Below, piece by piece: positions 5,746-25,064 of a stretch of 64,000 bases of DNA (within the stretch, counting starts at the first letter, position 1; each line of letters opens with the position of its first letter). The position numbers and the translations under genes were made by a program. The notes beneath the pieces were generated by a model that saw only the letters and a program-made list of their open reading frames with translations, was not told where the DNA came from and searched no databases. The stretch is from an uncultured Gammaproteobacteria bacterium. GTDB taxonomy: Bacteria; Patescibacteriota; Microgenomatia; Levybacterales; UBA12049. The DNA lies in assembly GCA_964490105.1 (NCBI GenBank), contig CAZAZU010000003.1, positions 245 to 64,244 of the forward strand, read 5' to 3'.

Positions 5746-5747
5746 AG

Positions 5748-7724: not shown

Positions 7725-8383
7725 TTTACTAGCCCTGTGTTTGGTTTTGCGCCCTTAACAATGGTGTCGCTAATGCCGTCTGAGATATGGGCACCACTGT
7801 CAGAATTGTAAATTTCATAAAAAAGCCTAATGAGTTCGTTTTTTTCAAGAATTTTTGATTTTACACCTGCTCTCATGAGCTCCTGAATGACAGATTGAGC
7901 TTTTGACATAAGAAGATTTCTAGCGTCAATGATTACCGCTTGTTTATTTTTAGCGTTTGAGACGCCACTGACTCCTTTTTCGAGAAAGGAAAATGAAATA
8001 GCAATATAGAATTTTTTATCAAGCACAGACTTATCGCGAACGAGTTGCGAGACAAAATCCTTATACATATTTATTTGAGCTGCAAGATTTGGATTAAGAG
8101 CTTTTTGAGCCTGCTGTTCCAGGAGCGTTACATATGAGCTTATGTCTAATTTTCTGCTTAAAATAACAATCTGAATCGGAAAAGAAAGGGAGTTTAGAAG
8201 GGAGGCATATGAAAGAATTTTTGCCTGCTGTTCTTCGTTTGATTGTAAAGCAAAATTTGTAGCTACGATCTCCATAATCAGGCAGGCATTCCCTCCAGAA
8301 AGAATAACCATATTTTCAACAATGTCTTCGATTTCTATAAATTTTTGCGTTGTTGCAGTTATTTTCTGAGCAGAGTTTTTCAT
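7721..8383 (-). CDS. Hypothetical protein inside the T4SS-like operon
   Basis: 220 aa with no TM segment. ATGA overlap with virB4 suggests translational coupling. Confidence 0.4.
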   Translation of the reverse strand: MKNSAQKITATTQKFIEIEDIVENMVILSGGNACLIMEIVATNFALQSNEEQQAKILSYASLLNSLSFPIQIVILSRKLDISSYVTLLEQQAQKALNPNLAAQINMYKDFVSQLVRDKSVLDKKFYIAISFSFLEKGVSGVSNAKNKQAVIIDARNLLMSKAQSVIQELMRAGVKSKILEKNELIRLFYEIYNSDSGAHISDGISDTIVKGAKPNTGLVK

Positions 8384-9663
8384 TAGTTAAAAAGCTCCCT
8401 TCTTAATTCTTCTCTTGAGTCAACCGAGAGTATCTCAAGCGGCATAATAGGTGCGCCCGTAGCTTCAATTTCCACCGCATCGAATCTGTTTTGAGCTTTA
8501 GGATCTTCAAATGTGATTATGTATTTCCCGTTTGAAAGGGAGGTGGCAGCTGCGAATTGCCCAAGTCCGTTAGTTTTAAACGCTCTTACAGGGTTGTCCT
8601 GAGGATCTTTAACCTCTACGAGTATATTGGGTAAGGGATTACCTCGGGGATCCTTTACAATGCCTGTTATGAGATTTGGCTCTTGTGTGGCAGCGGGAAT
8701 TCCTATGCTTTTTTCCATTCCCGGAGGAACTTTTCTTACCCTCTGAGTTTGGGGAAGGGTATTAAGAGTTGTAGGATTAAACTTAGGTTGGGTTTGTCCT
8801 TCGAGCTTTGCCTTAAGCGATAAAAGTTCTTTTTCAAGCTCCTCTCTCTGTCTTGTAGCTTCAATTAATGCTTTTTCAAGTTCCTGAGTTTTTTGATGCA
8901 TGGTTCCAGCATTTGCGATATTAGTTTCTGTGTTCTCGAGCGCTTTTGCTTCCTCAAGCTCTTTTTGAAGCGTAGATACTTCAGCTTCGAGCTTTTTTTC
9001 GTTTTCTTCAATTTTTTCTTCAGCTTCCTCAGCTTTTGCATCAACAAGGTCATCTAGGTTCCCTGAAAGCATTGCTGGCTGAGTATTATCCGGAAGCTCT
9101 ACCACTTTGCCAGGCATATCAGTTGGAGCTTGAGTAGGCGGAGCTGGTTGAATTTGCGGTTGAATTGCCTGGATCTGAGGTGATTCTTGGGCAGGTTGGG
9201 GCATTTGCTGAAAGACTTGGAGTGGTTGTTGAATAGGCTGCTGAGCAATTGCCTGAACGGGCTGCGCCTGTTGGGGCTTAGTCTGTTCTTGCTGATTACT
9301 TAATATAATATTTTGAGGCCGAGCTTGTTGAATAGTCTGATTGGGGACTGAAGCAAGACTGCCTCCTGATTTTTTATAAATATATTGAGTTGGTGCAAAC
9401 ATAGCCTTGATTAGATTAATAATCATTACATCTAGGGGTCGTCCGTCTACGGGTATGAAGGCTAAGGCTACTCCTAATCCCAGGAACAGGAGCGCCAATG
9501 GGAGTTTAATTATAAGGAAAATAGGTAGTATAAAAAAACAAAACCATGCTAGGACAGTGCCTCCAGCTAGATATGCAAATTGCTTAACGGTCATATTGCC
9601 GATAAGCTTAAATTGAAACCCCGTAATGTCTTGCGGTATTGGATGATTCTCCATAGGCAGCAA
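8383..9663 (-). CDS. Membrane protein with two N-terminal TM helices (VirB3-like position), Q/P-rich linker, coiled coil and C-terminal CarboxypepD_reg-like beta-sandwich
   Basis: TM helices AYLAGGTVLAWFCFFILPIFLIIKLPLALLFLGLGVALAFIP. QQP-rich low-complexity region. Heptad-like EEAEEKIEENEKKLEAEVSTLQKELEEAKALE. C-terminus GIVKDPRGNPLPNILVEVKD...TNGLGQF...GKYIITFE. Confidence 0.45.
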   Translation of the reverse strand: MLPMENHPIPQDITGFQFKLIGNMTVKQFAYLAGGTVLAWFCFFILPIFLIIKLPLALLFLGLGVALAFIPVDGRPLDVMIINLIKAMFAPTQYIYKKSGGSLASVPNQTIQQARPQNIILSNQQEQTKPQQAQPVQAIAQQPIQQPLQVFQQMPQPAQESPQIQAIQPQIQPAPPTQAPTDMPGKVVELPDNTQPAMLSGNLDDLVDAKAEEAEEKIEENEKKLEAEVSTLQKELEEAKALENTETNIANAGTMHQKTQELEKALIEATRQREELEKELLSLKAKLEGQTQPKFNPTTLNTLPQTQRVRKVPPGMEKSIGIPAATQEPNLITGIVKDPRGNPLPNILVEVKDPQDNPVRAFKTNGLGQFAAATSLSNGKYIITFEDPKAQNRFDAVEIEATGAPIMPLEILSVDSREELRRELFN

Positions 9664-9789
9664 ACAAAATAACTACTAGTATCTAGTACCTATTTACTAG
9701 CTAATAGAATATAACGTGAAAAAAAGGGATTCAAGGCGATCGAAATAGATCAGTTTTAGAGAAAAATGAAGCTAATTGTGAAAACCTCT

Positions 9790-10197
9790 TTAAGGAGTAA
9801 AGCAGGATCCTGATCTGCACTGTTGGATGTCTGGGCGCGGACAATCAAAGCGATCCGTACAAGGGACACATTGGGAAAACCCAAACCGGGTTATGCAGGC
9901 CTCTCTTACTCCGGTAGCCTTTGCAATAACAGGTAAGATTATAAAAGACAAAAGAATCAAAACAAAACCAAGCACAGCGAACGTGAGAGTTTTCCTCGCT
10001 CCTTCTGCTTGCTTAGGATCTCCACCAGAGGTTACAAACTTAAATCCACTAATAATAATAAAGATAATAGCTACGAGCCCTGATAAAACCAATAACCAGA
10101 AAATAACATTTCCGACTATGACCGGGAAACAGTTGACCGTAGCGACTTGATCGCCTCCTCCTACTAAACAACCGCTATCTTTTAATGCTTGCCACAT
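9790..10197 (-). CDS. VirB2/TrbC-like two-TM pilin-like protein, paralog 1, with Cys-rich C-terminal tail
   Basis: 135 aa. Hydrophobic hairpin around the conserved TSGGDPKQAEGARKTLTFAVLGFVLILLSFI motif. C-terminal 8-Cys tail. Confidence 0.55.
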   Translation of the reverse strand: MWQALKDSGCLVGGGDQVATVNCFPVIVGNVIFWLLVLSGLVAIIFIIISGFKFVTSGGDPKQAEGARKTLTFAVLGFVLILLSFIILPVIAKATGVREACITRFGFSQCVPCTDRFDCPRPDIQQCRSGSCFTP

Positions 10198-10242
10198 AGA
10201 GTTAGCGTAACAAAGAGAGATTTAAAAAACAAGGGGAATAGA

Positions 10243-10668
10243 TTAGTCAACCAAGTTAGGGATAATGATGTTTCCTCCGGTTAGTGATCCGGCATCAAAT
10301 AGCTGTAATACGAAGTTGATGATAAAGTAGGAGACGAAAACAAGCACTAAGCCTACAAGTGCAGCTACGATCGTTCCTCTTGCAGCCTCTACTTTGCCTT
10401 TATCCCCACCAGACATAATCCATTTGATTCCTCCGTAGACTAGAAATCCGATAGCTAATATAACAGCTACTATGAATAGGATTGTTATTATATTTGAAAT
10501 CATTGGACCTACTCCATCAGCCCCAAGCGAACATAAAGCTCCAAATCTGAGTCCTCCGCCTGGATTGTCAGCGCATGGATCAATCGGACCAAAATCCTGA
10601 GCAAATGCAATTGGGGTAAGACTTAAATAAGTTGCTGTAGAAAATATTAGAGCAGATAACTTTTTCAT
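10243..10668 (-). CDS. VirB2/TrbC-like pilin-like protein, paralog 2
   Basis: Signal peptide MKKLSALIFSTATYLSLTPIAFA if the ATG at 10666-10668 is used; the ORF track's 10707 start is TTG. Hairpin with MSGGDKGKVEAARGTIVAALVGLVLVFVSYF motif. Confidence 0.55.
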   Translation of the reverse strand: MKKLSALIFSTATYLSLTPIAFAQDFGPIDPCADNPGGGLRFGALCSLGADGVGPMISNIITILFIVAVILAIGFLVYGGIKWIMSGGDKGKVEAARGTIVAALVGLVLVFVSYFIINFVLQLFDAGSLTGGNIIIPNLVD

Positions 10669-10722
10669 TAGTAATATGATCGTATGAGGTTTTGAATTGT
10701 TTGTCAAGAGGTAAATTCGAGG

Positions 10723-11178
10723 CTAAAATGCACATCCCGGTCTAGATGGATTACATTGACACCTGTATCTTCCGGTATCCGCATCTCTTCTGCATAAGGG
10801 TCTGTCTGGATTTGGACAAGTTCCAAATGTGTCACCTCCGCATCTTGAGGTGCTAGCGGGTAGATCTAAAACCTTTACTTGGAAAAGAGCAGAAACGGTG
10901 CTAATTATCATAAAAGATGCGAAACCAACTATAAGACCGATTATTGCATAGATTATTTTTTTTCTTGCCGCCTCAACTTTGTTTTTGTCTCCTTGTGATG
11001 TTATATAGGAAATACCTCCCCAAATTAGAAAAAAAAGCGCAGTCAGCGTGAGGAGTATGAACAACACTGTCATTCCGTTTGAGATAAGACTAAGAAGGGT
11101 TTCGTCTCCTCCTGATGGCATTCCCATAATAGGGTCAATTCTTTTTCCGCCAGGTAGCGCTAATGCAATTTTTTCCAT
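10723..11178 (-). CDS. VirB2/TrbC-like pilin-like protein, paralog 3, with Cys-rich C-terminal tail
   Basis: Hairpin with TSQGDKNKVEAARKKIIYAIIGLIVGFASFMI. C-terminal Cys-rich CGGDTFGTCPNPDRPLCRRDADTGRYRCQCNPSRPGCAF. The track's N-terminal 11 aa (MIFWDYLDLDN) is read-through into the 349-bp repeat, so the start was trimmed to the ATG at 11176-11178. Confidence 0.55.
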   Translation of the reverse strand: MEKIALALPGGKRIDPIMGMPSGGDETLLSLISNGMTVLFILLTLTALFFLIWGGISYITSQGDKNKVEAARKKIIYAIIGLIVGFASFMIISTVSALFQVKVLDLPASTSRCGGDTFGTCPNPDRPLCRRDADTGRYRCQCNPSRPGCAF

Positions 11179-11179
11179 A

Positions 11180-11528
11180 TTATCTAAATCCAGGTAGTCC
11201 CAGAATATCACGGGTTATTAATTCAAGTAAAGCTAAGGAGAATATTATGAACAGAAGTCCAACTATCGCTGCGGTTAGTTGATCTCTGGCATTCTTAACT
11301 TTCTCAGGATCTCCCTGGGAAGTCATCAGCTTATATCCTGCAATAATTATGATTATTATTACTATTCCTCCGGAAATGCTTAAAACAAACCCAAGCATCC
11401 ATCTGGTAAATCCAGCTGAATCTGTTCTCACAAATCCGATTGCTGTTTTAATCTTTGTACACCCCTTAGCATCTGTATATGATGATCCATTCTTAGCACA
11501 AGGAAGGGAGAGAGGGTCATTTTGTTGA
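11180..11528. repeat. 349-bp direct repeat, copy A (3' end of pilin paralog 4 plus the junction)
   Basis: Appears identical, on reading, to 12141-12489. Encodes the shared C-terminal pilin module. Confidence 0.85.
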
Positions 11529-12097
11529 AGAGTCGTATCGCTTTCATAATCAGTATGAAAGCCTGGGACATCTCCCTCAGCAAAAGGCCTACAGAGGGGT
11601 GTTTTTGAGTCAGAGTAAGCCTTAGAGGTCATTTGATAAAACTTGCCATCTGCTGGATCCTTAAATACGCAGTAATTCATACTACATAGATTGCCTAGGC
11701 CTTTTCTGCACTGGTCATTGCTCGTGGTGCATGTGTCGCTAGCGTTTAGTTCACAGCGGTCTGTTTCGTCTGGAACATCTCTCACCTCACATCCTCTATA
11801 TGCATTTGCGCTACATATTTGATCATCTGGGCATGGTGAGGGAGGGTTTGGGTTAGGCGCTCGTTGTTCGCTTGAGCATTCGAAAGCCGTTTGGCTTGGA
11901 TTGCAAACCACATCGTCATTAACATATACACATTTCCAAACTCCGGCATCGTTATAAGGGTGTGCAGTTTTTCCGCTTACTCGAGGGCATGTAAAGCAAT
12001 CGCTGCCATTGCCTCGAGCGGCAAATGATGGATTTGATCCAAGTGCAAAAAGTAGGAAAAAAAATATAGGGACGAGAATTGTTAATATTTTTCTCAC
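11180..12097 (-). CDS. Secreted Cys-rich ectodomain fused to a C-terminal VirB2-like pilin module, paralog 4
   Basis: GTG start in frame at 12095-12097 gives signal peptide VRKILTILVPIFFFLLFALGSNPSFAA. About 20 Cys in the ectodomain. The C-terminal 116 aa are identical to paralog 5 (YKLMTSQGDPEKVKNARDQLTAAIVGLLFIIFSLALLELI). Confidence 0.55.
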   Translation of the reverse strand: MRKILTILVPIFFFLLFALGSNPSFAARGNGSDCFTCPRVSGKTAHPYNDAGVWKCVYVNDDVVCNPSQTAFECSSEQRAPNPNPPSPCPDDQICSANAYRGCEVRDVPDETDRCELNASDTCTTSNDQCRKGLGNLCSMNYCVFKDPADGKFYQMTSKAYSDSKTPLCRPFAEGDVPGFHTDYESDTTLQQNDPLSLPCAKNGSSYTDAKGCTKIKTAIGFVRTDSAGFTRWMLGFVLSISGGIVIIIIIIAGYKLMTSQGDPEKVKNARDQLTAAIVGLLFIIFSLALLELITRDILGLPGFR

Positions 12098-12140
12098 AAC
12101 TTTATCGTAGGTAAAACTTAGAGGAATTGCAAGAAAGGGG

Positions 12141-12489
12141 TTATCTAAATCCAGGTAGTCCCAGAATATCACGGGTTATTAATTCAAGTAAAGCTAAGGA
12201 GAATATTATGAACAGAAGTCCAACTATCGCTGCGGTTAGTTGATCTCTGGCATTCTTAACTTTCTCAGGATCTCCCTGGGAAGTCATCAGCTTATATCCT
12301 GCAATAATTATGATTATTATTACTATTCCTCCGGAAATGCTTAAAACAAACCCAAGCATCCATCTGGTAAATCCAGCTGAATCTGTTCTCACAAATCCGA
12401 TTGCTGTTTTAATCTTTGTACACCCCTTAGCATCTGTATATGATGATCCATTCTTAGCACAAGGAAGGGAGAGAGGGTCATTTTGTTGA
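12141..12489. repeat. 349-bp direct repeat, copy B (3' end of pilin paralog 5 plus the junction)
   Basis: Appears identical to 11180-11528. The copies are 961 bp apart. Confidence 0.85.
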
Positions 12490-13535
12490 TATCTGATACT
12501 GCTAACGCAGCCCTTTCCTTGTATGCATCTAAGGTTATTTCTTTCATTACAATAACCTTTGCTTTCCGGCATCGCTTCATCTCCTGACGGCGTAACGCAC
12601 TTACCATCATTCCATGTGTCAGTGCTTTTGCATTTATAACATGTATTTCCGAAGTCTTCGGGAGCTTCTTTGCAAGTTCCCGTAAGAGCATCTCTGCCGT
12701 TTTTATCACAAATTAAATTGTCGCAGCAGCTGCCCTGACTGCCTGCATTACCGCTACAGGTTTCCCCTTTATTATTGCAGAAGTCGGGTGGCGGATAGCC
12801 TTTTGGATATGCGCAGTATGTTCTAATTTCATTGCCCTTTCTGTTATTACATCGTGGACCAGGCCCCGATCCGCACACATTGCCAATTCCCTGAACCTCC
12901 TTGCAGTCATGAGTGCTTTTAGGGCAATTAGGATCTCTATTAGCGCACCAATCTCTTTCAGAGTCAGGGGTAGTACATCTTCCTTCTCCGGCAACACATC
13001 TTGTTCCTTGGGCAGAGCAATCAACTCTTGAAACAGGGTCTCTTAATTCGCTTCCCTTTACGCATAGATCTGCTGCGTTGCTCCATGTAAATCCCGAAGC
13101 GCATCGGGGACAGCTTTGGGGCGTTGCGGGGATTGGATTTGTTGCTGAGCAGTCAGCAGCAACCACATCTGGTCCTGGAGTGAAGCCTGCGGTTTGGTCG
13201 CTGCAGCCATGGTCAAACCCTCCGCCTATATCGCACTTGGAAAGTGTCCAGCTGATTGTTTTTCCTTCCTGGCTTTTTGAAACGTCAATCGTGTAGGGAG
13301 AAGATGTTATTCTGGTTTCCGGTATGCCCGTAGCGTTAAATTTCCAAAAGTAGCTATTACTATCTGCCGTAGAGTATGTCCATTCAAACTTAATTCTGGA
13401 AGTTTCATTGTCTGGTCCCCCACAAAACGGGTTAGCTCTAAGGTTTTGTGGCGGATTGGGAATTGCGTGTGCGACTTCTGGTAAAAAAAATACCATTGCA
13501 AGAAAATAAATAACTAAGATCAGAATTTTTCTCAC
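12141..13535 (-). CDS. Secreted large Cys-rich ectodomain fused to a C-terminal VirB2-like pilin module, paralog 5
   Basis: GTG start with signal peptide MRKILILVIYFLAMVFFLPEVAHA. More than 40 Cys in the ectodomain. C-terminal 116 aa identical to paralog 4. Shares a 27-bp 5'-end block and the 349-bp 3' block with paralog 4. Confidence 0.6.
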   Translation of the reverse strand: MRKILILVIYFLAMVFFLPEVAHAIPNPPQNLRANPFCGGPDNETSRIKFEWTYSTADSNSYFWKFNATGIPETRITSSPYTIDVSKSQEGKTISWTLSKCDIGGGFDHGCSDQTAGFTPGPDVVAADCSATNPIPATPQSCPRCASGFTWSNAADLCVKGSELRDPVSRVDCSAQGTRCVAGEGRCTTPDSERDWCANRDPNCPKSTHDCKEVQGIGNVCGSGPGPRCNNRKGNEIRTYCAYPKGYPPPDFCNNKGETCSGNAGSQGSCCDNLICDKNGRDALTGTCKEAPEDFGNTCYKCKSTDTWNDGKCVTPSGDEAMPESKGYCNERNNLRCIQGKGCVSSIRYQQNDPLSLPCAKNGSSYTDAKGCTKIKTAIGFVRTDSAGFTRWMLGFVLSISGGIVIIIIIIAGYKLMTSQGDPEKVKNARDQLTAAIVGLLFIIFSLALLELITRDILGLPGFR

Positions 13536-13571
13536 AACTTTATCGTAGAAGAATAAAATTCGATTTGCAAA

Positions 13572-14879
13572 TTAGGAAGAGAATTTAAAGCCTCGGCCTT
13601 TTATTGTTTGGATGTGCGTAGGAGAGTTAGGGTTTTCCTCGATTTTTTTTCTTACCCTAAAAATTAGCTGATCTAAGGCTTGCTCAGTTACTCCTGCGGT
13701 CGAAGCTTGATCTCCCCATACGCTACTGATTATCTCGTCTCTCTCTAAGATTTTTTCAGGGTTTAAGGCTAAGAATTTAAGCAACTTAAACTCTGAGGAT
13801 GTTAATCCTTCAGATAGGATGAGATTGCCTTTTATTATTTCATTTGTTGACTCATCATAGATAATCTCATTTTTGGCGTTTTTAAGTTCATTTTTTGCAA
13901 ATTCTTCTAAAAGGGGAACAGCAAATTTATTATTTTTGACTAAGTCTATTGCCACTAGATGGCTTGATTCGGTAGCGTCTTCCTTAGCAATTAGATTTTG
14001 CTCAAACGGGGTAAGGGATTTCCAGATTTCTGTTAAAACTGCCTTAACTCGCGTATTTGATAAAAGAAATTCTTTAATGTTCTTTTTAACCCCTTCATTG
14101 ATGCACGCTTCAGTACTTACAAGCCATAGTTTTCCCAAACCGCCGGTAACTTTAATAATTTCATCAAGAGTAGGTTGATTAATAGTTTTGTCTGTAGATT
14201 TTTTAATATAGCTTAACCTAAAGTTTCTAATTTTCTCATCTCCTAGCGAGAGATAGACTAAATTCCCTACTAAAAATTCATAAAAAGTTGATAAAACGTC
14301 ATGCCCTATTGTTTCCTCAAGCGGGCGATTAAGGGGAAAAACACAAGAAAATCTGTATTTTGCTCTGTCTCTTAATACTTTTAAGTTTTCAAAAAATACA
14401 GGCTCAACTACGCCCACATATTCTTCAAATTTGTCAAAAAGAAGAACTATGGTTAATTCCTTATGTAAGCATAAATAGTCAATTGTTTTTTTAAATCCTT
14501 GAAAAATTACTAACTCATCGCCTGATTTTAAACTCTCATCTAAGATTGCTTTGGTAAACTTATATTCTTCGTTCAGTTTTCTCTCCTGTAGGGAATCTAC
14601 GAGCTCTAAAAACATGTATTTAGTAGAATCAGACAGCGGTCTTTTTTTAATCTCAGAAAAATTTAGCATTACGAAATGGAACCATTTTTGATTTTCTCCC
14701 AGATGAAGATGACGCGCCTTTGTGTTATATGCAAGAATTCGAAGCACGTTACTTCTCCCAACACCGGGAAGTGAAATAACTTGTGCTGAATTACCACTTT
14801 TAATATAGGAAATTATTTTTCCTATTTCTTCTTTTCTGGAATCCGGCGGGTAAAGTGATTCAAAGTGCGTAGGTTCCAT
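13572..14879 (-). CDS. Putative transcriptional regulator: N-terminal ATPase-like domain plus C-terminal OmpR/PhoB-type winged helix
   Basis: C-terminus LSEGLTSSEFKLLKFLALNPEKILERDEIISSVWGD...TEQALDQLIFRVRKKIEENPNSPTHIQTIKGRGFKF matches the Trans_reg_C pattern. N-terminus has a degenerate P-loop-like LPGVGRSNVLR. First gene of the minus-strand block. Confidence 0.55.
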   Translation of the reverse strand: MEPTHFESLYPPDSRKEEIGKIISYIKSGNSAQVISLPGVGRSNVLRILAYNTKARHLHLGENQKWFHFVMLNFSEIKKRPLSDSTKYMFLELVDSLQERKLNEEYKFTKAILDESLKSGDELVIFQGFKKTIDYLCLHKELTIVLLFDKFEEYVGVVEPVFFENLKVLRDRAKYRFSCVFPLNRPLEETIGHDVLSTFYEFLVGNLVYLSLGDEKIRNFRLSYIKKSTDKTINQPTLDEIIKVTGGLGKLWLVSTEACINEGVKKNIKEFLLSNTRVKAVLTEIWKSLTPFEQNLIAKEDATESSHLVAIDLVKNNKFAVPLLEEFAKNELKNAKNEIIYDESTNEIIKGNLILSEGLTSSEFKLLKFLALNPEKILERDEIISSVWGDQASTAGVTEQALDQLIFRVRKKIEENPNSPTHIQTIKGRGFKFSS

Positions 14880-14950
14880 AGCTTTGGTTATTTAATTGTA
14901 AGTGTTTTATAAGGTTTTTATCAAGCTCGTAGGAGTGGTTTGACTTAAAC

Positions 14951-17900
14951 TTGCTCCATATGACACAGGAAATTCTTACAGGATCCATTCAACAGATTCA
15001 GGGTAAGCAAATTGAATTGACAGTAAGAAGCATAAATCCTACACTGAATAGAGGGGGAGAAATCTTTATGTCAGACGCTGGAATTAATACTGAAGCACCA
15101 CAAGCCGTAAGACCTGTCGCAACAAGCGGGGAATTACCTGCTCTTCCGAGAGCGGGGGGGATGTCTCTTGAAGGATTGACTCCGGCTCAACAAATTGATG
15201 CCAAAAGAACTATAAAGCTTATTGAGGATCTAGGTTTTAAGCCAAAAGAAGTGACTTCTAAAGGTAGAACTGAGCAGACGGCTCAGTCAGTTGTTGAAAA
15301 TGCAGGCTTAGATAGTCAGGATCCAGTAGTTTTAAAAAGATCTCGCGATTTAGCAAATAAAGAAGATTTAACAGCAGAGGAGACTGCAGAACTACTTCAA
15401 GCAAATTCTGGGAGAATTTCAAAAGCAGAAGAGTTACTTAAGGAATCATTAGGCAGAGAATTAACTGATGCTGAGAAAAAAGCAATCTTAAGAGCTCATT
15501 TTGTGGGATTTGGTGAAAAAGGAAAAGATGAAAAAAGAGACTCTGGTGTATTTAATGTAAGCCAGGAGCAGTTAGCGGAAAAAGCAAGAATTCTTAAGGA
15601 TGCAGGTTTTGATAAAGAACAAAGACGAGAAATCATAGAATCAGGTCTTGCTGCAGGTGCTCCTCCAGCTCCAGCTAATCCCATGGATGCAAGAAATCAG
15701 GCAATTGCCGATCTGGCTAATCTAAATCTTACGTTAAAGCTTGCTGATATTAGAGACAAAATATTGGCCTTACATGCAGAAGCACAAGCGGGCAATCAAG
15801 GAGCTGGTCTAGTGCCAAATCCTGATGGAATATCTTCTGAGACATTTGATGCTATCTATAAAGGATTTTTTGAAAGAGTAAAAAATGTCTTGAACATGCC
15901 AAATCCCCCCGTTGAGGTTTTAGCACTTGAGCAGCAACTCAAGCAAATAAAAGATCTAGATGACAGAACTCACGAGCAACGAGGACCGCAAGAGAATTTT
16001 ATAAATGAATACGACTTTCTAGTAAAACAGCTTGTAGATGTTGGGCCAAATAATCCTCAGAGGCAGCAGTTTGAGCAAATGCTCGTAGATAGGGTTGTGG
16101 CATTTACCGCTTCTGGGGTTAATCCTTCAAATGACAATATTTACGATATGACTTTAAAGAGAATTATTCAAACAGATGTTTTAGTGTCGAATCCTGTACT
16201 ACAAGAGCAGGTGAGATCGGCGCTAGATAGATTGGTGGTTAGAATTGTAGGATTACCACTACAATCTGATACGGGAGATTTTGACATCGGATTTTATGGA
16301 GGAATTAATTTTGCCTCTATAAAAAATCTTTTACTCTCTATGTCTCAGGACCCATCATACTTTGAAACTAGAGAGATACGCAGGTTATATAGCCAAATGA
16401 ATCTAACAACAAGAGATGCGTATGTACAGTTTAGAGATACAAGAAGAGACCAGAATCTTAATGTGGGATCAAAATTTGAAGCAATGAGAATAGTCCATGA
16501 GTTAAATAAAATGATTGTTCAAAATCAGCTTGATGCTGCTAACCAGGCAGCGCCTCAATTAGGGCCTGAGTATGTTCAGGCATTGTCTAAGTCAAAAGGA
16601 GTTGCATCTGTATTCAGGATTATGGAGTCTGGAATTCTGGATCTTATGGCTAGAGATGGATATATGGCCAAAGGCAGATATGATGCATTAATGGGTAAAG
16701 CACAAAGTCAGGAAACTGGAAGATTTGATAACTCAGGAAATGCATCTATTGTTAAGCAGATTAGAAAAATGCAAGAGCAGCTGGGATCATTGCCGCAAGG
16801 TGCTCAAGCAGGATTAACTCAAGACATGAAGCAATTACTCCAGATGGAAGATTGGGAAGTAGACCTAGCATTTAATTTGGGAAGAAATCTTTATAACATT
16901 TTACATAGATCTGCTGAGCTATCTTCATGGGGAAGATTGCCAAAAGGACTTAAGGCATTTACAAATTCCGTATTTGGAGGATTTAGAAATATTTATAACC
17001 CTGGACTCCATGTTCTAGAAAGATTTAAGCCAGGCGCAGGCAGAGGAGGATATAGATTATTTGAAATGTTTATGGATGCAATGCAAAGACGAAGAAAAAC
17101 TATGGAAGGTTACGGAGACATGAATTTGGAGCAGGTTAGGGGCGACCTTATTAAATTCTTTGAGCTTCCTTCTATCGCTGGCCAAAGAGGATTTATTTCT
17201 TCATGGAAAGCAAATGAGGGAACCCTAACAATGGTGGAAACTAATTTTACCCCACAGGGTATTTTCGGTCAATTCGATATACATTCCCAAATGCACCTAG
17301 AGGAAGATGGATCAAAAATTTTTGATAGAGCTACAGGGATTGTGCCGGGTAGAGGCATTGGTCATTTCCTGGATACAGATGCGTTAACTTTCATTAATAG
17401 CGCAGGGGAGCAGTTTGAATGGGGTAAGCTATCAGATGGGCAGAAAGCTGATTATTTCAGATCTTTATTTTTTGAACCCGGAACGGGAGGCCACGGACAT
17501 GACCCAGTGTTAAGACGGGATATAAATATTGGATTAGGGGTAATTTATAAAACCGCGCTGGGGCCAGCGGGGGGGCATCATGGGCATGAAAGTCATCACC
17601 TCAATGAAGTTAAAGAACAAATAAGGAGATTGATATGGGAGCGCGCTGCTGAAGAAAATCCACTTGCAGTTTTGCCTTATCTACATAAGCTTAAATTTAG
17701 CGCCGATCATGCGCCTGTTACTGTAGGGCAGGGGCCTCAGGCAAGAACAGAGGTTGTGGCAGGAAAAACCTTACTTGCTGATGTGTATCAAGCACCAGTA
17801 ATGAGCGATTCCAAAGTAAAATTCATGCTGCTAAATGAGTGGAGAATGTCAAAGATTAAGGAAGGGAATCTCAACTACACTTTAGTTGATGCTATAAATG

Positions 17901-18727
17901 AGATTGATGCATCAATGGGAGTACAGAGAGATCCTATTACGCACGCTATAACCAATCAAGTCGCCGTTATGGGGCTTAGTCTCACTCAAGAAGAATATGA
18001 ATTATACGATAGGATTGTTGAGAGCGCAAAATTAGCATCTAGAGATATGGCAAATGTAAGGTATGGCTTTGTGGCATTTGCGAATGATCTTCCTTTTGAA
18101 AAAGAGAACTTTGATGTTTTGGGAAATAACGCATATCAAAGGCACTTCGGAGATGTGGTTCAGATAAATAGCTCAACACAAGCTATGATAGACGCATTTG
18201 ACAATCTTGGTACAGTAAAAGATTTTCATGGAGTGGTCGAGGTTGTGGGTAAATTTGAAAAAGGAATTACTGCAGTTCATGGGGATGCTGCAGCCAAAGA
18301 TAAAGCAGCTCCTTTAGTAGAGGCTATTACAAGATTTTTTAGAAGAGGTGAGAATGCAGGTGGAGAAAAATTCGTTGAAGAGGATAAAAAAGGCCCAATG
18401 GCTAAAATGAAAAGATATTTTAGGCAATGGGACGAGGTGCATTCAGTCTTGCAACAGTTTCATAAAGCAAACTCTATCGCTCAGCAGGAATATAATGTTG
18501 AAGCATTGGCATTAGATAGGCATCAGATTTACTTACTTCAGGAGGAGTTGATGGCAAGTGGATTTATGGGGCATGATCAGGAAGAGGAGTTTAGGAAAAA
18601 CTTTGGAGGGTTCTTGGGTTTTATAACAAGAATGATGCTTGAAGGATTCTTAAGGACTGGAAAATTATCTACGATAATAACAGCGAGAGGTTTGTTGGGG
18701 AGTTCATTTAAAGGTGCAATTGAATAA
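14951..18727 (+). CDS. Large soluble hypothetical protein (1258 aa), divergent from the regulator. The real start may be the internal Met at about 15069
   Basis: Long uninterrupted ORF with no TM segment. Helical, charged N-terminal third. His-rich motifs GGHGHDPV and GGHHGHESHH near 17490-17600. Confidence 0.5.
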   Translation: MLHMTQEILTGSIQQIQGKQIELTVRSINPTLNRGGEIFMSDAGINTEAPQAVRPVATSGELPALPRAGGMSLEGLTPAQQIDAKRTIKLIEDLGFKPKEVTSKGRTEQTAQSVVENAGLDSQDPVVLKRSRDLANKEDLTAEETAELLQANSGRISKAEELLKESLGRELTDAEKKAILRAHFVGFGEKGKDEKRDSGVFNVSQEQLAEKARILKDAGFDKEQRREIIESGLAAGAPPAPANPMDARNQAIADLANLNLTLKLADIRDKILALHAEAQAGNQGAGLVPNPDGISSETFDAIYKGFFERVKNVLNMPNPPVEVLALEQQLKQIKDLDDRTHEQRGPQENFINEYDFLVKQLVDVGPNNPQRQQFEQMLVDRVVAFTASGVNPSNDNIYDMTLKRIIQTDVLVSNPVLQEQVRSALDRLVVRIVGLPLQSDTGDFDIGFYGGINFASIKNLLLSMSQDPSYFETREIRRLYSQMNLTTRDAYVQFRDTRRDQNLNVGSKFEAMRIVHELNKMIVQNQLDAANQAAPQLGPEYVQALSKSKGVASVFRIMESGILDLMARDGYMAKGRYDALMGKAQSQETGRFDNSGNASIVKQIRKMQEQLGSLPQGAQAGLTQDMKQLLQMEDWEVDLAFNLGRNLYNILHRSAELSSWGRLPKGLKAFTNSVFGGFRNIYNPGLHVLERFKPGAGRGGYRLFEMFMDAMQRRRKTMEGYGDMNLEQVRGDLIKFFELPSIAGQRGFISSWKANEGTLTMVETNFTPQGIFGQFDIHSQMHLEEDGSKIFDRATGIVPGRGIGHFLDTDALTFINSAGEQFEWGKLSDGQKADYFRSLFFEPGTGGHGHDPVLRRDINIGLGVIYKTALGPAGGHHGHESHHLNEVKEQIRRLIWERAAEENPLAVLPYLHKLKFSADHAPVTVGQGPQARTEVVAGKTLLADVYQAPVMSDSKVKFMLLNEWRMSKIKEGNLNYTLVDAINEIDASMGVQRDPITHAITNQVAVMGLSLTQEEYELYDRIVESAKLASRDMANVRYGFVAFANDLPFEKENFDVLGNNAYQRHFGDVVQINSSTQAMIDAFDNLGTVKDFHGVVEVVGKFEKGITAVHGDAAAKDKAAPLVEAITRFFRRGENAGGEKFVEEDKKGPMAKMKRYFRQWDEVHSVLQQFHKANSIAQQEYNVEALALDRHQIYLLQEELMASGFMGHDQEEEFRKNFGGFLGFITRMMLEGFLRTGKLSTIITARGLLGSSFKGAIE

Positions 18728-18749: not shown

Positions 18750-20351
18750 CTATCCTCCAAGAAGTTGACTGATGATTCTTCCTCGCTGTCTGTGTTTTGC
18801 ATCTAAGCTCATTGGGTCATGTTGAATAGCAGCGGCACCTTTAAGTCCTCCTCTAATTGCGCCACCAGCAGCTGCGGTAGGCTGGAAAACAGGGCCGTAA
18901 TTAACATTTGGAGCTTTAATAGCGCCTCTAGTAATTTGAAGTACGTGAGGTGTCATAAATAAGAATCCTAAAGCTATCACACCAGCAAATATTTGGCTGG
19001 AGTCCCCGGTTCCTCCACCTACAAGGGGCGGGATAAATAAGGTTCCAGTCTCGATTGTGTTTTGTGGATCTGATGCAATATCGCTGAATACTTTTCCTAA
19101 GATAAACATAGACATAGCAGTAGGGAATACGGCCAGATTAGCAAGCATATCCTTAAACCAGGGGCTTACGCCAGTGGAAGAGCCTGGGAACAGGCCAATT
19201 AAGATCCAGAACGGTGCAAAAACGATATCTAATAAGATGTTTATGTACGCAGTTATTAATATAATCCATAGGCGAATTGCAGTATAAATTAAAGCCAAAA
19301 ATATAATTAAAGCTGAGGCTAAGCCCACTATTAAGCCTACTACTGCAGTAAATAGATTACCTACAAAATCAAAAAGACCAGGTTCAAAATTTACGCTCCC
19401 GCGTCCGCTAGGAGATCCATTTAGAGCGTTCATAACTAAATTTCTCATTGTGTCAGATCCCTGAAGTGCTAATTCAGGAAATCCTCCCCCAAATCCCGCT
19501 CCTAAGTCATCGCTTGGGTCACCTGGCCAAAGTCTGTTAATTGCATCAAATGGGGTAGGGGATGTAGTTATTTGTCCTAAGTTGCCGATCTCATGTCCCG
19601 GAATGTTGGCTAGTACACCGCCAACTAGATATAAGGCTACGTACATAACATCTATCAGAAGTCCTGCTATTGCAAAAGAAAAAGTGACCAGTATTATTCC
19701 CGTAATAATTCTAGGAATCTGGTTTTCTATGGTCATTACTGTGCGGGGGTCAATATGAACACGGAACATGATAGCTAGACCAATTAATACAAAAATAATA
19801 ACGAAGAGTAAGTAGGCTATATTTCTCATAGCCACCCAGATCTCTAGAAGCGGTCTAATTCCGCAAAACCCTACTCCCTGTACTGCTCCGGCACACTCTC
19901 CTGCCCGCGGTTCTTGAGCGTATGTGTTTTTGGCTATACCGAAATTGCCGGCTAGGTAATTAATGTATTGACCTGAGCTTGTAGGAGGTGTAAATGTGGC
20001 GGCAATCAGTGTGCCCATTACGCCTAATGCCCCTCCGCCATTTTCTACGAAACCTATCCTCCCTGTTACAGGATCAACTCCTAAGCATCTATGATCTTGT
20101 CTAATTGGATCAAAACCGCCAAGCTGACAAACAGTTGCAGCCATAAGTTCAATTACTGTGCTTTGTACGTATGTGCGCTGGTCCTTTGGTACATCAGAAT
20201 TGAGGCCGGTGGTATTCTTTTCTGTTTTTATAATATCGCTATTTTTTACCTCCGTAGTTATAGATGCTTGCGCAAAAGAATTTTTAGTAAAAAGAAAGAA
20301 AAGTGAGCCTAAAAAGACAAATAAAATTAATACTCGGGCAGAGAGCTTCAT
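18750..20351 (-). CDS. Polytopic membrane protein; candidate VirB6/TrbL-like T4SS channel component
   Basis: Signal peptide, then at least six hydrophobic helices across 533 aa with a periplasmic loop after the signal. Lies near the VirB4 cluster. Assignment rests on topology alone. Confidence 0.4.
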   Translation of the reverse strand: MKLSARVLILFVFLGSLFFLFTKNSFAQASITTEVKNSDIIKTEKNTTGLNSDVPKDQRTYVQSTVIELMAATVCQLGGFDPIRQDHRCLGVDPVTGRIGFVENGGGALGVMGTLIAATFTPPTSSGQYINYLAGNFGIAKNTYAQEPRAGECAGAVQGVGFCGIRPLLEIWVAMRNIAYLLFVIIFVLIGLAIMFRVHIDPRTVMTIENQIPRIITGIILVTFSFAIAGLLIDVMYVALYLVGGVLANIPGHEIGNLGQITTSPTPFDAINRLWPGDPSDDLGAGFGGGFPELALQGSDTMRNLVMNALNGSPSGRGSVNFEPGLFDFVGNLFTAVVGLIVGLASALIIFLALIYTAIRLWIILITAYINILLDIVFAPFWILIGLFPGSSTGVSPWFKDMLANLAVFPTAMSMFILGKVFSDIASDPQNTIETGTLFIPPLVGGGTGDSSQIFAGVIALGFLFMTPHVLQITRGAIKAPNVNYGPVFQPTAAAGGAIRGGLKGAAAIQHDPMSLDAKHRQRGRIISQLLGG

Positions 20352-20401: not shown

Positions 20402-20488
20402 CGGAGAGGGCGAGATTCGAACTCGCGGTAGGCTTGCACCCACAGCTGTTTTCAAGACAGCCGCACTAGTCCACTATGCGACCTCTCC
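20402..20488 (-). tRNA. tRNA-Ser(UGA), class II
   Basis: Reverse complement GGAGAGGTCGCATAGTGGAC...GCTGTCTTGAAAACAGC...GGTTCGAATC. Anticodon loop CTTGAAA. Long variable arm. CCA not encoded. Confidence 0.8.
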
Positions 20489-20534: not shown

Positions 20535-22082
20535 TTATCTTCTTGGGGTGGTGCCTTCTAGGGTACCCTCTTTTATGGTTTTGCCAGTTTGATTTGTAGT
20601 AGTTATTACTGATGAAATGAGAGCAATTTTTAGGAAATCCAAGAGAATCCTTTTGCGTTTTTCTTTATTTATGGTGGCATAATGTAATCTTGCAGCTTCA
20701 TATCTAAGCCTAGCTTCTTTAAGTGCTTGTGGAGAGGCACCATTTTCTTGCAAATTTCTATATTCTGTTTTTGCTTCATCTCTAATCTCTTTCGCGCCAT
20801 CAGCCATACTTCTTAGAACTTTACTATATTCTGTTTTGGTATTTTTAGCTCGAGCTTTAGCTCTGGTAAAAATCCCTTTATAGGTTTTATCTCTTTTTGC
20901 AATTAAATCTTTTAGGGCTTTTCCGGCTTCAGCCAAAGCCTGTGGAGTTTCGCGCCCAGCATTAACGCTATCTTTAGCCTGGATAAAAGCTGCACTTATC
21001 ACTAAACCCTCTTCATTATTCATCGCATCCTCTAATGCCAATTGGGCTTTATATATTCTTTCATCTGATGCTTTTCCAGATGTTAGCTCGTCTAGGTTTG
21101 CTTTTGCCGGCGTAATAAGCGAAAACAAAGGTGGTTCTTCTTTTGCTTCTTCTGTTGCCGCAATAATTTCACTTACTAATTCCTCGTCCACTGTTTCCTC
21201 AGGTTCTTGCGCAGGTATATCAGTATCAGCTGGGGGCTCAACAGGAGCACTGGGTAATTCAGTGGCTGCTGAAGCCAGCTCTGGGTCAATTACCTCACCA
21301 TCCGTAGCCGCAGGGGTAGGCTCACTAGTTTCAATACTCGAAACGTTATTCCCTAAATGTCTCTCTGAAAGGGTTTCTCCGTTTTCCCCTTGGTACTTTC
21401 TTGTATCGTATACGCTCATTCCTATCCTAGGAGTTAAGCTAGCCTTTTTTACAACTATTGGTTTTCCATTCTCATAAACTACCAAATATAGATTGTTAGG
21501 GTTAGTCACGGATTCAAGATTTGCTATGGAGACCGCAGAGTCATCTGCTTGTCTTTCTACTATGTATGATTGGAGAGGGCTACCTTCGATTTGCACTGCT
21601 TCAAGAACTCGCTGAGCTTCTTCAGCGTTTAAGTCCATAAATACGGTAATTCCTTGTTTTTCATGTTGCTCACCTGTCTCTGTTTTAAATCTTGTTGTTT
21701 TTCCATCGGAATCATATGTATAAACTGAGCCATGGTCTGTGGTAAAAGATTTTATGCGCGATCCATTTTCAGCTCGAGGTGGCTCTGCGGACGTTACTTT
21801 AGGCTCCACTTTTCCATCTGGTTCTAGCTTTTTTGGAGTAGGGAGGCCTGCGGCATCAGCTAAGGCTGCATCAACTCTGGGAGGATTTGCAGTTAAATCT
21901 GCTTCAATAGTTCCGGCAAGCACATTATTAGCGGCTACAACACTTGCATCTGGTGGTTTTGGTACAGAGGGAGCAATAGGAGGCCTTGCTGCTTCTGAAG
22001 GTCTTGGTGTTCCATCTGGCATACTTGGTATTACGCTCATATGTTCTATCATAAGTCTAGATTTATAAGCTCTTTTTGTCAA
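20535..22082 (-). CDS. Hypothetical protein with Ala/Pro-rich N-terminal half and coiled-coil C-terminus
   Basis: 515 aa, compositionally GC-richer than its surroundings. No TM segment or signal peptide. Confidence 0.45.
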   Translation of the reverse strand: MTKRAYKSRLMIEHMSVIPSMPDGTPRPSEAARPPIAPSVPKPPDASVVAANNVLAGTIEADLTANPPRVDAALADAAGLPTPKKLEPDGKVEPKVTSAEPPRAENGSRIKSFTTDHGSVYTYDSDGKTTRFKTETGEQHEKQGITVFMDLNAEEAQRVLEAVQIEGSPLQSYIVERQADDSAVSIANLESVTNPNNLYLVVYENGKPIVVKKASLTPRIGMSVYDTRKYQGENGETLSERHLGNNVSSIETSEPTPAATDGEVIDPELASAATELPSAPVEPPADTDIPAQEPEETVDEELVSEIIAATEEAKEEPPLFSLITPAKANLDELTSGKASDERIYKAQLALEDAMNNEEGLVISAAFIQAKDSVNAGRETPQALAEAGKALKDLIAKRDKTYKGIFTRAKARAKNTKTEYSKVLRSMADGAKEIRDEAKTEYRNLQENGASPQALKEARLRYEAARLHYATINKEKRKRILLDFLKIALISSVITTTNQTGKTIKEGTLEGTTPRR

Positions 22083-22189
22083 TTTTACTGAACTTTGAAG
22101 TCCAGTATGAAAACTTAAAAATCTAAAAATGAGTTTATACTGAATGAAGCCGAACTACTTGATATTAACTTTACAGAAAATTTATAGAT

Positions 22190-23166: not shown

Positions 23167-23256
23167 TGGCGGAGAGTGGGAGATTCGAACTCCCGGTCGC
23201 CTTACGACGACATCCGCTTTCCAAGCGAACGCACTAGGCCACTATGCGAACTCTCC
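23167..23256 (-). tRNA. tRNA-Ser(GGA), class II, CCA encoded
   Basis: Reverse complement GGAGAGTTCGCATAGTGGCCTAGTGCGTTCGCTTGGAAAGCGGA...GAGTTCGAATCTC...GCCA. Anticodon loop TTGGAAA. Confidence 0.8.
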
Positions 23257-23284
23257 TCGCCTTGCTCGGAGTAAACTCCAGCAG

Positions 23285-23710: not shown

Positions 23711-23720
23711 AATTAAATCC

Positions 23721-23808
23721 TGGCGGAGGGTGCAGGATTTGAACCTGCGTAGGACTTGCATCCTCGAGTTTTCGAAACTCGTGCAATTGGCCGCTATGCG
23801 AACCCTCC
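23721..23808 (-). tRNA. tRNA-Ser(CGA), class II, CCA encoded
   Basis: Reverse complement GGAGGGTTCGCATAGCGGCC...CGAGTTTCGAAAACTCG...GGTTCAAATCC...GCCA. Anticodon loop TTCGAAA. Confidence 0.8.
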
Positions 23809-23812
23809 AATG

Positions 23813-25054: not shown

Positions 25055-25064
25055 TTTAGCTACT

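Follow-up and report, generated by a model that had tools for sequence, protein, structure and literature searches.

We analysed a 64,000-nucleotide (nt) stretch of bacterial DNA (contig CAZAZU010000003.1; hereafter "the window") around a minus-strand gene that encodes a putative transcriptional regulator of 435 amino acids (aa). The initial annotation of this gene had described a roughly 330-aa ATPase-like domain with a degenerate P-loop ahead of a C-terminal winged helix-turn-helix (wHTH) domain of the OmpR/PhoB type, and had suggested, from its place at the head of a 13-kb minus-strand block and its divergence from the large neighbouring gene, a locus-specific and possibly nucleotide-sensing activator. 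The window begins inside dnaA; dnaN comes next, followed by a block of type IV secretion system (T4SS) genes, so that the T4SS locus lies within ~15 kb of dnaA/dnaN. Pfam searches identified five T4SS_pilin paralogs, PrgI (VirB3-like) and a VirB4-type ATPase (5748-7724, matching P-loop_TraG/AAA_10) among unknown proteins in this block, which also encodes a 220-aa protein whose counterparts in the related loci L001, L003 and L004 are marked TraC-like. The regulator open reading frame (ORF; 13572-14879, ATG start) heads an uninterrupted minus-strand run from 14879 down to 1794 and is divergent from a large plus-strand gene, both as initially described. The spacer between the two genes measures 71 nt to the listed TTG start of the large gene (14951) and 80 nt to a conserved ATG at 14960, for which we rejected the TTG after comparison across loci. 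The regulator ORF is not a chance feature, since a search of 5.8 billion proteins returned more than 766 homologs, nearly all of them full length.

No histidine-kinase family was found when the neighbouring proteins from 675 to 25742 were scanned with Pfam, and PADLOC returned no defence-system match for the regulator or its neighbours. Monoderm-type T4SS of Patescibacteria have been described near dnaA in Microgenomatia, with pilin arrays (PMC12102498). The T4SS of these bacteria is reported to be origin-proximal and, in Saccharimonadia, essential for epibiotic growth; this recent survey describes no regulator (PMC12102498). We likewise found no description of a regulator for the Patescibacteria T4SS in the literature searched, which is absence of evidence only.

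The C-terminal part of the regulator was tested with a Trans_reg_C profile search, set beforehand as the test that could refute the proposed architecture. This region (aa 359-433) matched PF00486 with an E value of 6.6e-20 and 71.4 bits, against a Pfam gathering score of 26.2, and Trans_reg_C was found in all 40 aligned family members. In an AlphaFold2 (AF2) model built from a 40-sequence alignment (pLDDT 89, pTM 0.74), the domain consists of strands at 339-342 and 347-350, helices at 361-372, 380-388 and 399-413, and a hairpin at 423-433, and Foldseek aligned it with the DNA-binding domains of OmpR, RstA, VicR, YycF and ToxR at TM scores of 0.69-0.78. Residues Q400, A401, D403, Q404, R408 and R410 of the recognition helix were invariant in the family alignment. 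The helix is almost invariant across the family and therefore fits a conserved core motif in the DNA, giving no signal of covariation between helix and repeats. Sequence matches in the PDB (PhoB, OmpR, RegX3 and ToxR) cover only aa ~337-434. The family profile also found only OmpR domains among PDB sequences and nothing for the N-terminal domain, whose identification therefore needed structure prediction and Foldseek. Pfam gave no Response_reg match in the regulator at E <= 1, and NCBIfam response-regulator models aligned only to aa ~330-434, far under their cutoffs. A two-component response regulator of the OmpR subfamily was ruled out: the protein has no receiver (REC) domain, and its N-terminal fold is AAA+-like.

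The ~330-aa P-loop domain proposed ahead of the wHTH is supported both by the predicted fold and by homolog profiles. The model divides it into an NTPase core with a helical lid and a small linker domain made up of helices and two short strands (see table), and full-length Foldseek alignments reach ORC/Cdc6 proteins, which carry AAA+, lid and winged-helix (WH) domains. Against the PDB, the N-terminal part matched Orc4, Orc1, Cdc6 and the archaeal ATPases 2qen and 2fna with E values of 1e-6 to 2e-4, at low TM scores of 0.30-0.45 and with ~12% identity to ORC/Cdc6; MuB had the best target-normalised TM score. On the strength of the model, the regulator would resemble ORC/Cdc6 in fold only. Among the 40 close family members scanned with Pfam, ten matched AAA_35 weakly, three to four weakly matched families of the type called STAND (signal transduction ATPases that have numerous domains) (nSTAND1, AAA_16), a few matched AAA_22 and one matched the ORC-CDC6-like model (E 0.0025). 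In the window protein itself, no other Pfam family matched aa 1-335, and neither Pfam nor the AF2 model placed a sensor repeat domain after the NTPase core. We file the N-terminal domain as a STAND/AAA+-class NTPase and do not claim strict STAND membership.

Motif conservation, counted over 120 close homologs, showed that the description of the P-loop (LPGVGRSNVLR, aa 37-47) as degenerate was misleading. G39 and G41 were present in 120 out of 120 sequences, S43 in 118 and R42 in 119, the remaining one having Lys. The window protein thus reads G-V-G-R-S where the canonical Walker A motif is GxxxxGK[ST]. In the Walker B-like strand, the Asp (D149, 120/120) and the distal acidic pair (E152, 115/120) are kept, but the residue after the Asp is basic (R or K in 120/120); R170, R172 and K174 were found in all 120 sequences and R185 in 113. 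Outgroups at 38-45% identity keep the Walker A Lys, and distant homologs have G-x-S-G-x-G-K-S-N in Walker A and hhhh-F-D-x-F-D/E (FDQFD or FDEFD) in Walker B; another branch of the superfamily has lost the Lys altogether (G-M-K-R-V-G-I-S). This pattern points to a Lys-to-Arg variant fixed in the Levybacteria clade under purifying selection, not to decay. Lys-to-Arg changes in P-loop NTPases usually spare some nucleotide binding and cripple hydrolysis, from which we infer a binding-type switch. The fixed Walker A Arg together with the D-(R/K) Walker B suggests that the module binds a nucleotide or another phosphate ligand and hydrolyses it poorly.

The best 120 homologs were nearly all full length, mostly ~430-470 aa long and 48-100% identical to the regulator. 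Where named, they came from Candidatus Levybacteria or "Patescibacteria group", and they were annotated merely as "winged helix-turn-helix domain-containing protein". Among species-representative genomes, Levybacteria account for almost all of the full-length family, and outside them there are one Curtissbacteria member (33%) and two full-length Chloroflexota relatives (23%). The regulator thus appears to be a conserved but unstudied transcription factor of Levybacteria, ultra-small bacteria of the candidate phyla radiation (CPR).

To a wider search, the architecture looked less singular. An exhaustive phmmer search with the N-terminal domain alone against 1.84 billion cluster representatives (clustered at 50% identity) returned 354 clusters at E <= 1e-3 and 94 at E <= 1e-10, most with proteins of 430-470 aa. 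Seven of ten distant members scanned carried a C-terminal Trans_reg_C domain; the other three (~340-370 aa) were without a wHTH. These distant homologs are tied to the window domain by phmmer E values of 1e-17 to 1e-8. Most of the wHTH-bearing ones also match nSTAND1, AAA_16, AAA_22 or NACHT, and some distant homologs score above Pfam cutoffs (nSTAND1, 36.0 and 34.7 vs 27.1; AAA_16, 33.6 vs 32.6; AAA_22, 32.9 vs 27; AAA_35, 27.1 vs 27). The architecture is therefore unusual among characterised regulators, as had been noted, but not rare: because of the 354 clusters, the seven wHTH-bearing members and the Chloroflexota relatives, a P-loop NTPase followed by an OmpR-type wHTH is a genuine, fairly widespread class and no local oddity. 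We found no description of this architecture in the literature searched, again absence of evidence only; PMC11404848 was rejected as one, as it concerns an ordinary response regulator. Two of the seven wHTH-bearing members are fusions (Ser/Thr kinase-NTPase-wHTH and NTPase-wHTH-TCAD9-TIR), and one Chloroflexota homolog adjoins a REC-TCAD9-CHAT protein, while the other is without T4SS context (fusion and neighbour examples: P0222, 1784 aa; P0234, 781 aa; L061, 7588-11344). The TIR, TCAD9, CHAT and kinase links suggest that, in other phyla, conflict systems too use the module as their transcriptional arm.

The proposal that the regulator is locus-specific held up well, as about 58 loci, with regulators 33-88% identical, share the same synteny with T4SS genes. 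Wherever the flanking sequence suffices, the regulator sits between the pilin/PrgI/VirB4 operon and a large gene of 870-1440 aa, which is typically divergent; this placement holds across L001-L059, also where the regulator is flipped. The large gene is followed by a ~530-600-aa membrane protein and often by a NUDIX gene, and dnaN-dnaA lies at the far end of the T4SS operon. The gene order of the window is shared with L001-L006. In four flipped loci (L024, L035, L038 and L051), the regulator is upstream of the large gene and co-directional with it, and in L024, L035 and L038 it is visibly divergent from the pilin genes. Many of the contigs carrying L007-L057 are third-party metagenome assemblies titled "uncultured Gammaproteobacteria bacterium" (one is titled "Bacteriovorax"), though the locus is clearly of the Levybacteria type; the titles are presumably placeholders or misassigned taxonomy.

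In many loci, a small gene for a four-helix bundle (23S_rRNA_IVP/bAvd) is inserted beside the regulator. Genes of this kind occur at variable positions in the T4SS locus (L003, 9582-9962; L004, 9599-9970 and 15315-15692; L006, 9600-9962, 11377-11757 and 13137-13544; others too), and the insertion resembles a mobile or selfish element. Several loci have short tandem repeats between the inserted gene and the regulator, immediately ahead of the latter's ATG (CTAGTTGCTAGTTTCTAGTTGCTAATTGCTAA in L003, for example). L003 also carries a DUF6922 and AbiEii pair of the toxin-antitoxin or abortive-infection type (11333-12219) between the regulator and the pilin genes.

A search of the window alone found no convincing OmpR-type repeats in either spacer flanking the regulator. 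They emerged only when we compared the upstream regions of 58 loci, and the suggestion that both spacers be searched was borne out in one of them: direct repeats of the OmpR type lie in 14880-14950, and none in 13536-13571, which holds a promoter and a palindrome instead. The 31-bp three-repeat element between the regulator and the large gene (site 1) and its promoter geometry are new here. On the plus strand, its units are TTGTAAG (14896-14902), TTATAAG (14907-14913) and TTATCAAG (14918-14925). On the regulator strand, the element reads CTTGATA-N4-CCTyAyAA-N3-mCTtACAA, with the unit consensus C-y-T-n-A-y-A-a repeated at an 11-bp period. The CTTGAYA anchor used for the alignment fixed the T/A/A positions of the first unit; those of the two downstream units were conserved in nearly all of 30 loci (T14 in 30, A16 in 28 and A18 in 29; T25 in 29, A27 in 27 and A29 in 29).

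In ~50 out of 58 loci, the element lies 33-36 nt from the start of the large gene (25-27 nt in some). This fixed distance holds where an inserted gene puts the element ~500 nt from the regulator, and also in the flipped loci L035 and L038. At the corresponding position, L024 and L051 have weaker copies (scores of 17.9 and 10.6 with the matrix described below). Towards the large gene, exactly 20 nt separate the repeats from a TAnnnT box in 51 out of 52 distinct promoters and 21 nt in the other one. The box is TAAACT in 25, TACAAT in eight, TAGAAT in six and another sequence in 13, and an ATG follows 6-10 nt past it in 52 out of 52. No -35 hexamer was found at the large-gene promoter, and its mRNA is predicted to be leaderless or nearly so. 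Overlapping site 1 on the opposite strand, TTGATA-18-TACAAT looks like a good sigma70-type promoter, which would drive the regulator, or the inserted small gene and the regulator.

Searches of Pfam, PADLOC and the PDB returned nothing for the large protein, and the 5.8 billion proteins yielded just 12 homologs of it. It is 45% identical in a genome whose regulator is 88% identical. The T4SS coupling proteins of the clade are far more conserved than the large protein (73-96% identical among the best 120 matches). Because the large protein diverges fast behind a conserved promoter, we speculate that it is an effector or a host-interaction protein.

We built a position weight matrix (PWM) from the site 1 sequences of related loci. 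Across the 64-kb window, it scored 35.7 at 14895-14925 and produced only two other matches, at 22158-22188 (27.8; site 2) and 48386-48416 (23.0; site 3). Maxima in 20 shuffled windows were 10.8 or less in 19 and 16.4 in one, and no match of 17 or more occurred in 412 kb of related CPR DNA. Each of the three precedes T4SS-linked genes and points the same way with respect to them. Sites 2 and 3 draw their support from the full 31-bp PWM, the 412-kb background, identical downstream geometry and conservation.

Site 2 lies upstream of p515, and equivalent sites with the 20-nt geometry were found upstream of p515 or p113 homologs in L001, L002, L010, L021 and L045. A tRNA gene (20402-20488) separates p515 from p533, for which a PDB sequence search returned nothing useful. 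Site 3 is 34 kb away, upstream of p122 and a VirD4/TrwB-type coupling protein, and the p122 ATG follows 8 nt past an extended -10 box, TGTGATAAT. The coupling protein matched TrwB_AAD_bind (2.8e-9) and TraG-D_C (1e-5) in Pfam, and its homologs are named [quoted passage not shown]. The close relatives L167-L170 have coupling proteins that are 84-93% identical; in L167, L169 and L170, site 3 retains two TTGTnAG units, the extended -10 and the leaderless ATG, and L168 has a degraded copy at the same position (full PWM score of 11.6). As site 3 is conserved only in these closest relatives, we treat the VirD4 link as clade-specific. A tRNA gene (51185-51256) and a Xer-like tyrosine recombinase (51307-52167) directly follow the VirD4-like gene; the recombinase keeps this position in L167-L170 and may be either the chromosomal Xer or the edge of an integrated element. 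The p122 and large proteins both begin with M-x-E-x-(Q)-x-L-type N-termini (MTQEIL and MNEDQNL, window 14960-14980 and 48448-48470; MNE... in many orthologs). Common M-x-E-type N-termini on apparently leaderless mRNAs could reflect a shared N-terminal signal or a constraint on translation initiation.

The 36-bp spacer on the other side of the regulator contains a promoter for the pilin operon, and the palindrome ATTTGCAAAT (13563-13572) overlaps its -35 box. The module TTGCAA-17-TACGAT-6-GTG occurs twice on the minus strand of the window (13533-13570 and 12095-12132) and in 22 out of 58 loci, including flipped ones. These modules imply leaderless GTG-initiated mRNAs, and the listed GTG start of the second pilin-like gene at 12172 is probably to be replaced by GTG 12097 (MRKILTIL..., with a signal peptide). 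The PWM found no copy of the three-repeat element near the pilin/VirB4 operon in the window. As judged by the cis-elements, the 13-kb minus-strand block does not emerge as the target, because the pilins have a consensus-like promoter of their own and the repeats track the large gene and two other sites. The 3' ends of pilin-like genes 1 and 2 are 100% identical over at least 300 nt (11180-11479 and 12141-12440). The common segment encodes the same ~113-aa T4SS_pilin/transmembrane C-terminus, while the Cys-rich N-terminal ectodomains differ in a cassette-like manner. Elsewhere in the window, tRNA genes cluster around a NUDIX gene (23170-23885 and 24970-25154), and a tmRNA gene lies at 27348-27737.

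Table. Coordinates of the regulator, its candidate sites and the associated genes (window numbering)
Feature	Position	Strand	Basis
Regulator gene, 435 aa (N-terminal NTPase module, C-terminal OmpR-type wHTH)	13572-14879	-	ORF, homologs, AF2 model
Regulator aa 1-262: P-loop NTPase core (five-stranded alpha/beta, aa ~30-210) and helical lid (aa ~215-262)	14094-14879	-	AF2, Foldseek
Walker A-like loop, aa 36-44 (S-L-P-G-V-G-R-S-N), Arg for canonical Lys	14748-14774	-	Conservation
Walker B-like strand, aa 145-153 (V-L-L-F-D-K-F-E-E), NACHT-style hhhhD-x-h-[DE]-[DE]	14421-14447	-	Conservation
Regulator aa 268-334: small helical, putatively winged-helix-like linker domain	13878-14078	-	AF2, Foldseek
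Regulator aa 337-435: OmpR/PhoB-type winged-helix DNA-binding domain (Trans_reg_C)	13575-13871	-	Pfam, Foldseek
Site 1: 31-bp element, three direct repeats at 11-bp spacing; candidate operator	14895-14925		Conservation, PWM
Promoter-like site for the regulator over site 1: -35 TTGATA (14924-14919), 18 nt, -10 TACAAT (14900-14895)	14895-14924	-	Sequence, conservation
-10 box of the large gene, TAAACT, exactly 20 nt from site 1; ATG 14960 follows 8 nt later	14946-14951	+	52 promoters
Large protein, 1255 aa if started at ATG 14960 (1258 aa with the listed TTG 14951); main predicted target	14960-18727	+	Conserved CATATG start
Site 2 (PWM 27.8), then on the minus strand 20 nt and TAAACT (22137-22132), upstream of p515	22158-22188		PWM
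p515, rich in Pro/Ala/Glu, hydrophobic segment at the C-terminus; predicted to be controlled from site 2	20535-22082	-	Sequence
p533, polytopic membrane protein downstream of p515	18750-20351	-	Most conserved neighbour, tblastn matches in 52 loci
Site 3 (PWM 23.0), then extended -10 TGTGATAAT (48431-48439) and leaderless ATG 48448	48386-48416		PWM
p122 (48448-48816; 122 aa) and VirD4/TrwB-type T4SS coupling protein (48819-51179; 786 aa); predicted target of site 3	48448-51179	+	Pfam
Pilin-operon promoter: -35 TTGCAA (13570-13565), 17 nt, TACGAT (13547-13542), 6 nt, GTG 13535	13533-13570	-	36-bp spacer
T4SS block downstream of the regulator	1794-13535	-	Pfam; order shared by L001-L006; adjoins dnaN and dnaA

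Taking these results together, we favour, with moderate confidence, the explanation that the regulator is a one-component NTPase-wHTH protein that activates the large gene, p515 and the p122-VirD4 unit and represses its own promoter, and that its family is conserved in Levybacteria and specifically serves the chromosomal T4SS region next to the replication origin. We infer from these data that it binds the element, in which direction it regulates each promoter, that its action depends on nucleotide and that transcription is leaderless. The protein would combine a sensor-less STAND/AAA+-type module (nucleotide-binding domain, lid and winged-helix-like domain) with an OmpR/PhoB-type wHTH. The NTPase module would gather several protomers, supplying oligomerisation and an on/off switch, and the wHTH domains would bind head-to-tail to the three 11-bp-phased repeats (core TTGTnAG) at about -63 to -33. 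Bound in this way, the regulator would recruit RNA polymerase, in the manner of OmpR, PhoB and SARP/AfsR, to promoters that have a -10 box and no -35. In nearly every genome this would be the large-gene promoter, joined in this clade by those of p515(-p533) and p122-VirD4. At site 1, binding would also occlude the regulator's own promoter and so produce negative autoregulation, because the repeats coincide there with the oppositely oriented TTGATA-18-TACAAT. The switch would be set by nucleotide binding or exchange, or by a protein partner, and not by a hydrolysis cycle.

This scheme has parallels in known systems. The wHTH is a clear member of the OmpR/PhoB response regulators by sequence and predicted fold, and tandem direct repeats upstream of or replacing the -35 are the classical targets of those proteins. 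The difference is that a ~335-aa NTPase module replaces the receiver, with no phospho-acceptor Asp. MalT and the other LAL regulators (STAND NTPase, sensor and C-terminal LuxR-type HTH) have the same topology, with the NTPase N-terminal and the DNA-binding domain C-terminal, and they are activators that bind repeated sites as oligomers. However, the DNA-binding domain here is of the OmpR and not the LuxR/GerE type, there is no sensor/SUPR domain and the protein is about half the size. Membership of MalT/LAL was rejected, given the C-terminal Trans_reg_C, no extra domain between aa 335 and the DNA-binding domain and no MalT-type Pfam match.

AfsR and the large SARPs of Streptomyces (OmpR-type wHTH, BTAD, a nucleotide-binding oligomerisation domain [NOD] of the NB-ARC type, and TPR) likewise join an OmpR-type DNA-binding domain to a STAND/NOD NTPase in one polypeptide. 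AfsR recognises a pair of 11-bp direct repeats that cover a poor -35, and its activation comes from ATP binding, not from hydrolysis (PMC10936776). The element described here has the same 11-bp period at -35-less promoters, although it has three repeats ending at about -33 instead of two centred at -29.5. The domain order is also reversed, with the NTPase N-terminal and the wHTH C-terminal, and the regulator has 435 aa and a Walker A Arg, compared with ~1000 aa for AfsR. Pfam found no BTAD, TPR or NB-ARC in the regulator or in 40 family members, and SARP/AfsR membership was rejected: the wHTH is C-terminal, BTAD and NB-ARC/TPR are lacking and the protein ends with the wHTH at aa 435. By analogy, the regulator would work like AfsR and MalT, as an NTPase-gated oligomerising activator on repeated sites, while being a member of neither group. 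Distant N-domain homologs that reach the cutoffs for nSTAND1, AAA_16, AAA_22 or AAA_35 carry the same C-terminal Trans_reg_C; typical members of those families differ in bearing effector and repeat domains and not a single wHTH, and the window protein falls below detection. Orc1/Cdc6 and the archaeal ATPase_2 proteins (2qen, 2fna) are the best whole-chain structural matches, with AAA+ core, lid and C-terminal winged-helix region, but their WH is of another type than OmpR, they act in replication initiation or have no known function, and the Walker A Lys is missing here. A sigma54 enhancer-binding protein was rejected, with no Sigma54_activat or HTH_8 match and sigma70-type -10 boxes at the targets.

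Several observations weigh against the activator model. The window protein itself has no significant Pfam NTPase match, known STAND structures are absent from the top 50 Foldseek matches, and the Lys-to-Arg Walker A may mean that no nucleotide is bound at all. The connection of the regulator to the element comes from adjacency, from a repeat type expected for the domain and from the nearly invariant recognition helix. The gap of 20 nt between the element's end and the -10 box is a helical turn longer than for pho and afs boxes. Site 1 could also be no more than the sigma70-type promoter of the regulator itself; only three features argue otherwise, namely conservation of the middle unit, a constant distance from the large gene and the existence of sites 2 and 3. 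Scored with the two-repeat core by itself, sites 2 and 3 do not reach significance (16.7 and 12.1, vs shuffle maxima of up to 21.4). The third unit is always TATCAAG at the large gene but not at site 3. The full PWM found site 3 absent from 68 more distant metagenome coupling-protein loci, and the core PWM found none at the expected position in the 61 such loci that could be scored.

Other explanations account for parts of these data. The N-terminal domain could be a pseudo-NTPase scaffold that, without nucleotide, only oligomerises or docks a partner such as a T4SS component, the same promoters being regulated by protein contact or by the regulator's own concentration. We regard this as unlikely, though it deserves real weight: Arg stands in for the catalytic Lys in 119 out of 120 homologs, R or K rather than E follows D149, the other superfamily branch (G-M-K-R-V-G-I-S) did without the Lys entirely, and the regulator has no sensor domain. 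Inactive STAND proteins ("iSTAND") are moreover a described concept (PMC7159879). An empty pocket, however, would give little reason for the invariance of G39, G41, S43, D149, E152 and R185. Arg, for its part, is still able to contact phosphates. Alternatively, the protein could be mainly an autoregulated repressor or a regulator of the pilin/VirB4 operon, with the element serving as a bidirectional promoter for RNA polymerase or another factor and the true operator lying elsewhere, for example in the ATTTGCAAAT palindrome. The regulator does sit directly upstream of the pilins across a 36-bp spacer with no terminator-like site, the palindrome covers the pilin -35, and TTGATA-18-TACAAT is a good match to a sigma70-type promoter. 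Yet in L024, L035 and L038, where the regulator is divergent from the pilins, the element is still with the large gene, and at sites 2 and 3 there is no gene that an opposite-strand promoter could drive. In addition, OmpR-family domains typically bind direct repeats, and the pilin promoter, with its near-consensus -35, looks independent of an activator; we consider this explanation improbable.

Two further possibilities have very little to recommend them in our estimation. In one, the protein is a DNA-loading or origin-associated AAA+ protein of the ORC/Cdc6, MuB or DnaA kind, and the proximity of dnaA-dnaN reflects replication or DNA handling by the T4SS. Orc4, Orc1 and Cdc6 are indeed the top Foldseek matches, MuB has the best target-normalised TM score for the N-terminal domain and the locus is within ~15 kb of dnaA/dnaN. 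The TM scores are nevertheless low (0.3-0.45), the profiles favour nSTAND1/AAA_16, the C-terminal domain is that of a bona fide OmpR-type transcription factor, the element has promoter geometry (-10 box and start codon) and also occurs 34 kb away, and distant homologs are not near origins. In the other, equally improbable, the protein is a defence or conflict STAND of the NLR/Avs kind with the DNA-binding domain as its effector, and the T4SS link is incidental. Distant homologs fused to or beside TIR, TCAD9, CHAT and kinase modules, which are typical of conflict systems, speak for it; the lack of PADLOC matches, of a sensor repeat domain and of a toxic effector speaks against it, as do the strict, vertically conserved chromosomal synteny and the matching cis-element across Levybacteria.

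CPR bacteria (Patescibacteria) have very few recognisable regulators. If the one-component activator model is right, the analysis yields a testable circuit for a large CPR lineage, with a candidate transcription factor, a 31-bp candidate operator and a small predicted regulon that separates the pilin/VirB4 operon, with its own strong promoter, from the large protein, the membrane-protein unit and the coupling protein. Beside AfsR and MalT, the minimal NTPase-wHTH without a sensor would be a third topology for joining a STAND-type NTPase to a DNA-binding domain, and its fixed Lys-to-Arg P-loop could reveal how such switches work without hydrolysis. A bolder reading, which we hold only tentatively and think doubtful as a whole, is that a minimal NLR-like (NOD) switch that lacks a sensor, carries Arg in its P-loop and is fused to an OmpR wHTH may be the dedicated master regulator of a host-interaction arm in the Levybacteria T4SS (hypervariable large protein, membrane component and VirD4), acting through a new three-repeat operator at leaderless, -35-less promoters, and that such "NOD-OmpR" proteins may form a widespread, unrecognised one-component class that is also wired into conflict systems (TIR, TCAD9-CHAT and kinase fusions) in Chloroflexota and other phyla. 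The architecture alone would be a modest curiosity; together, the conserved candidate operator and the predicted T4SS-linked regulon would offer an entry point into gene regulation in CPR bacteria.

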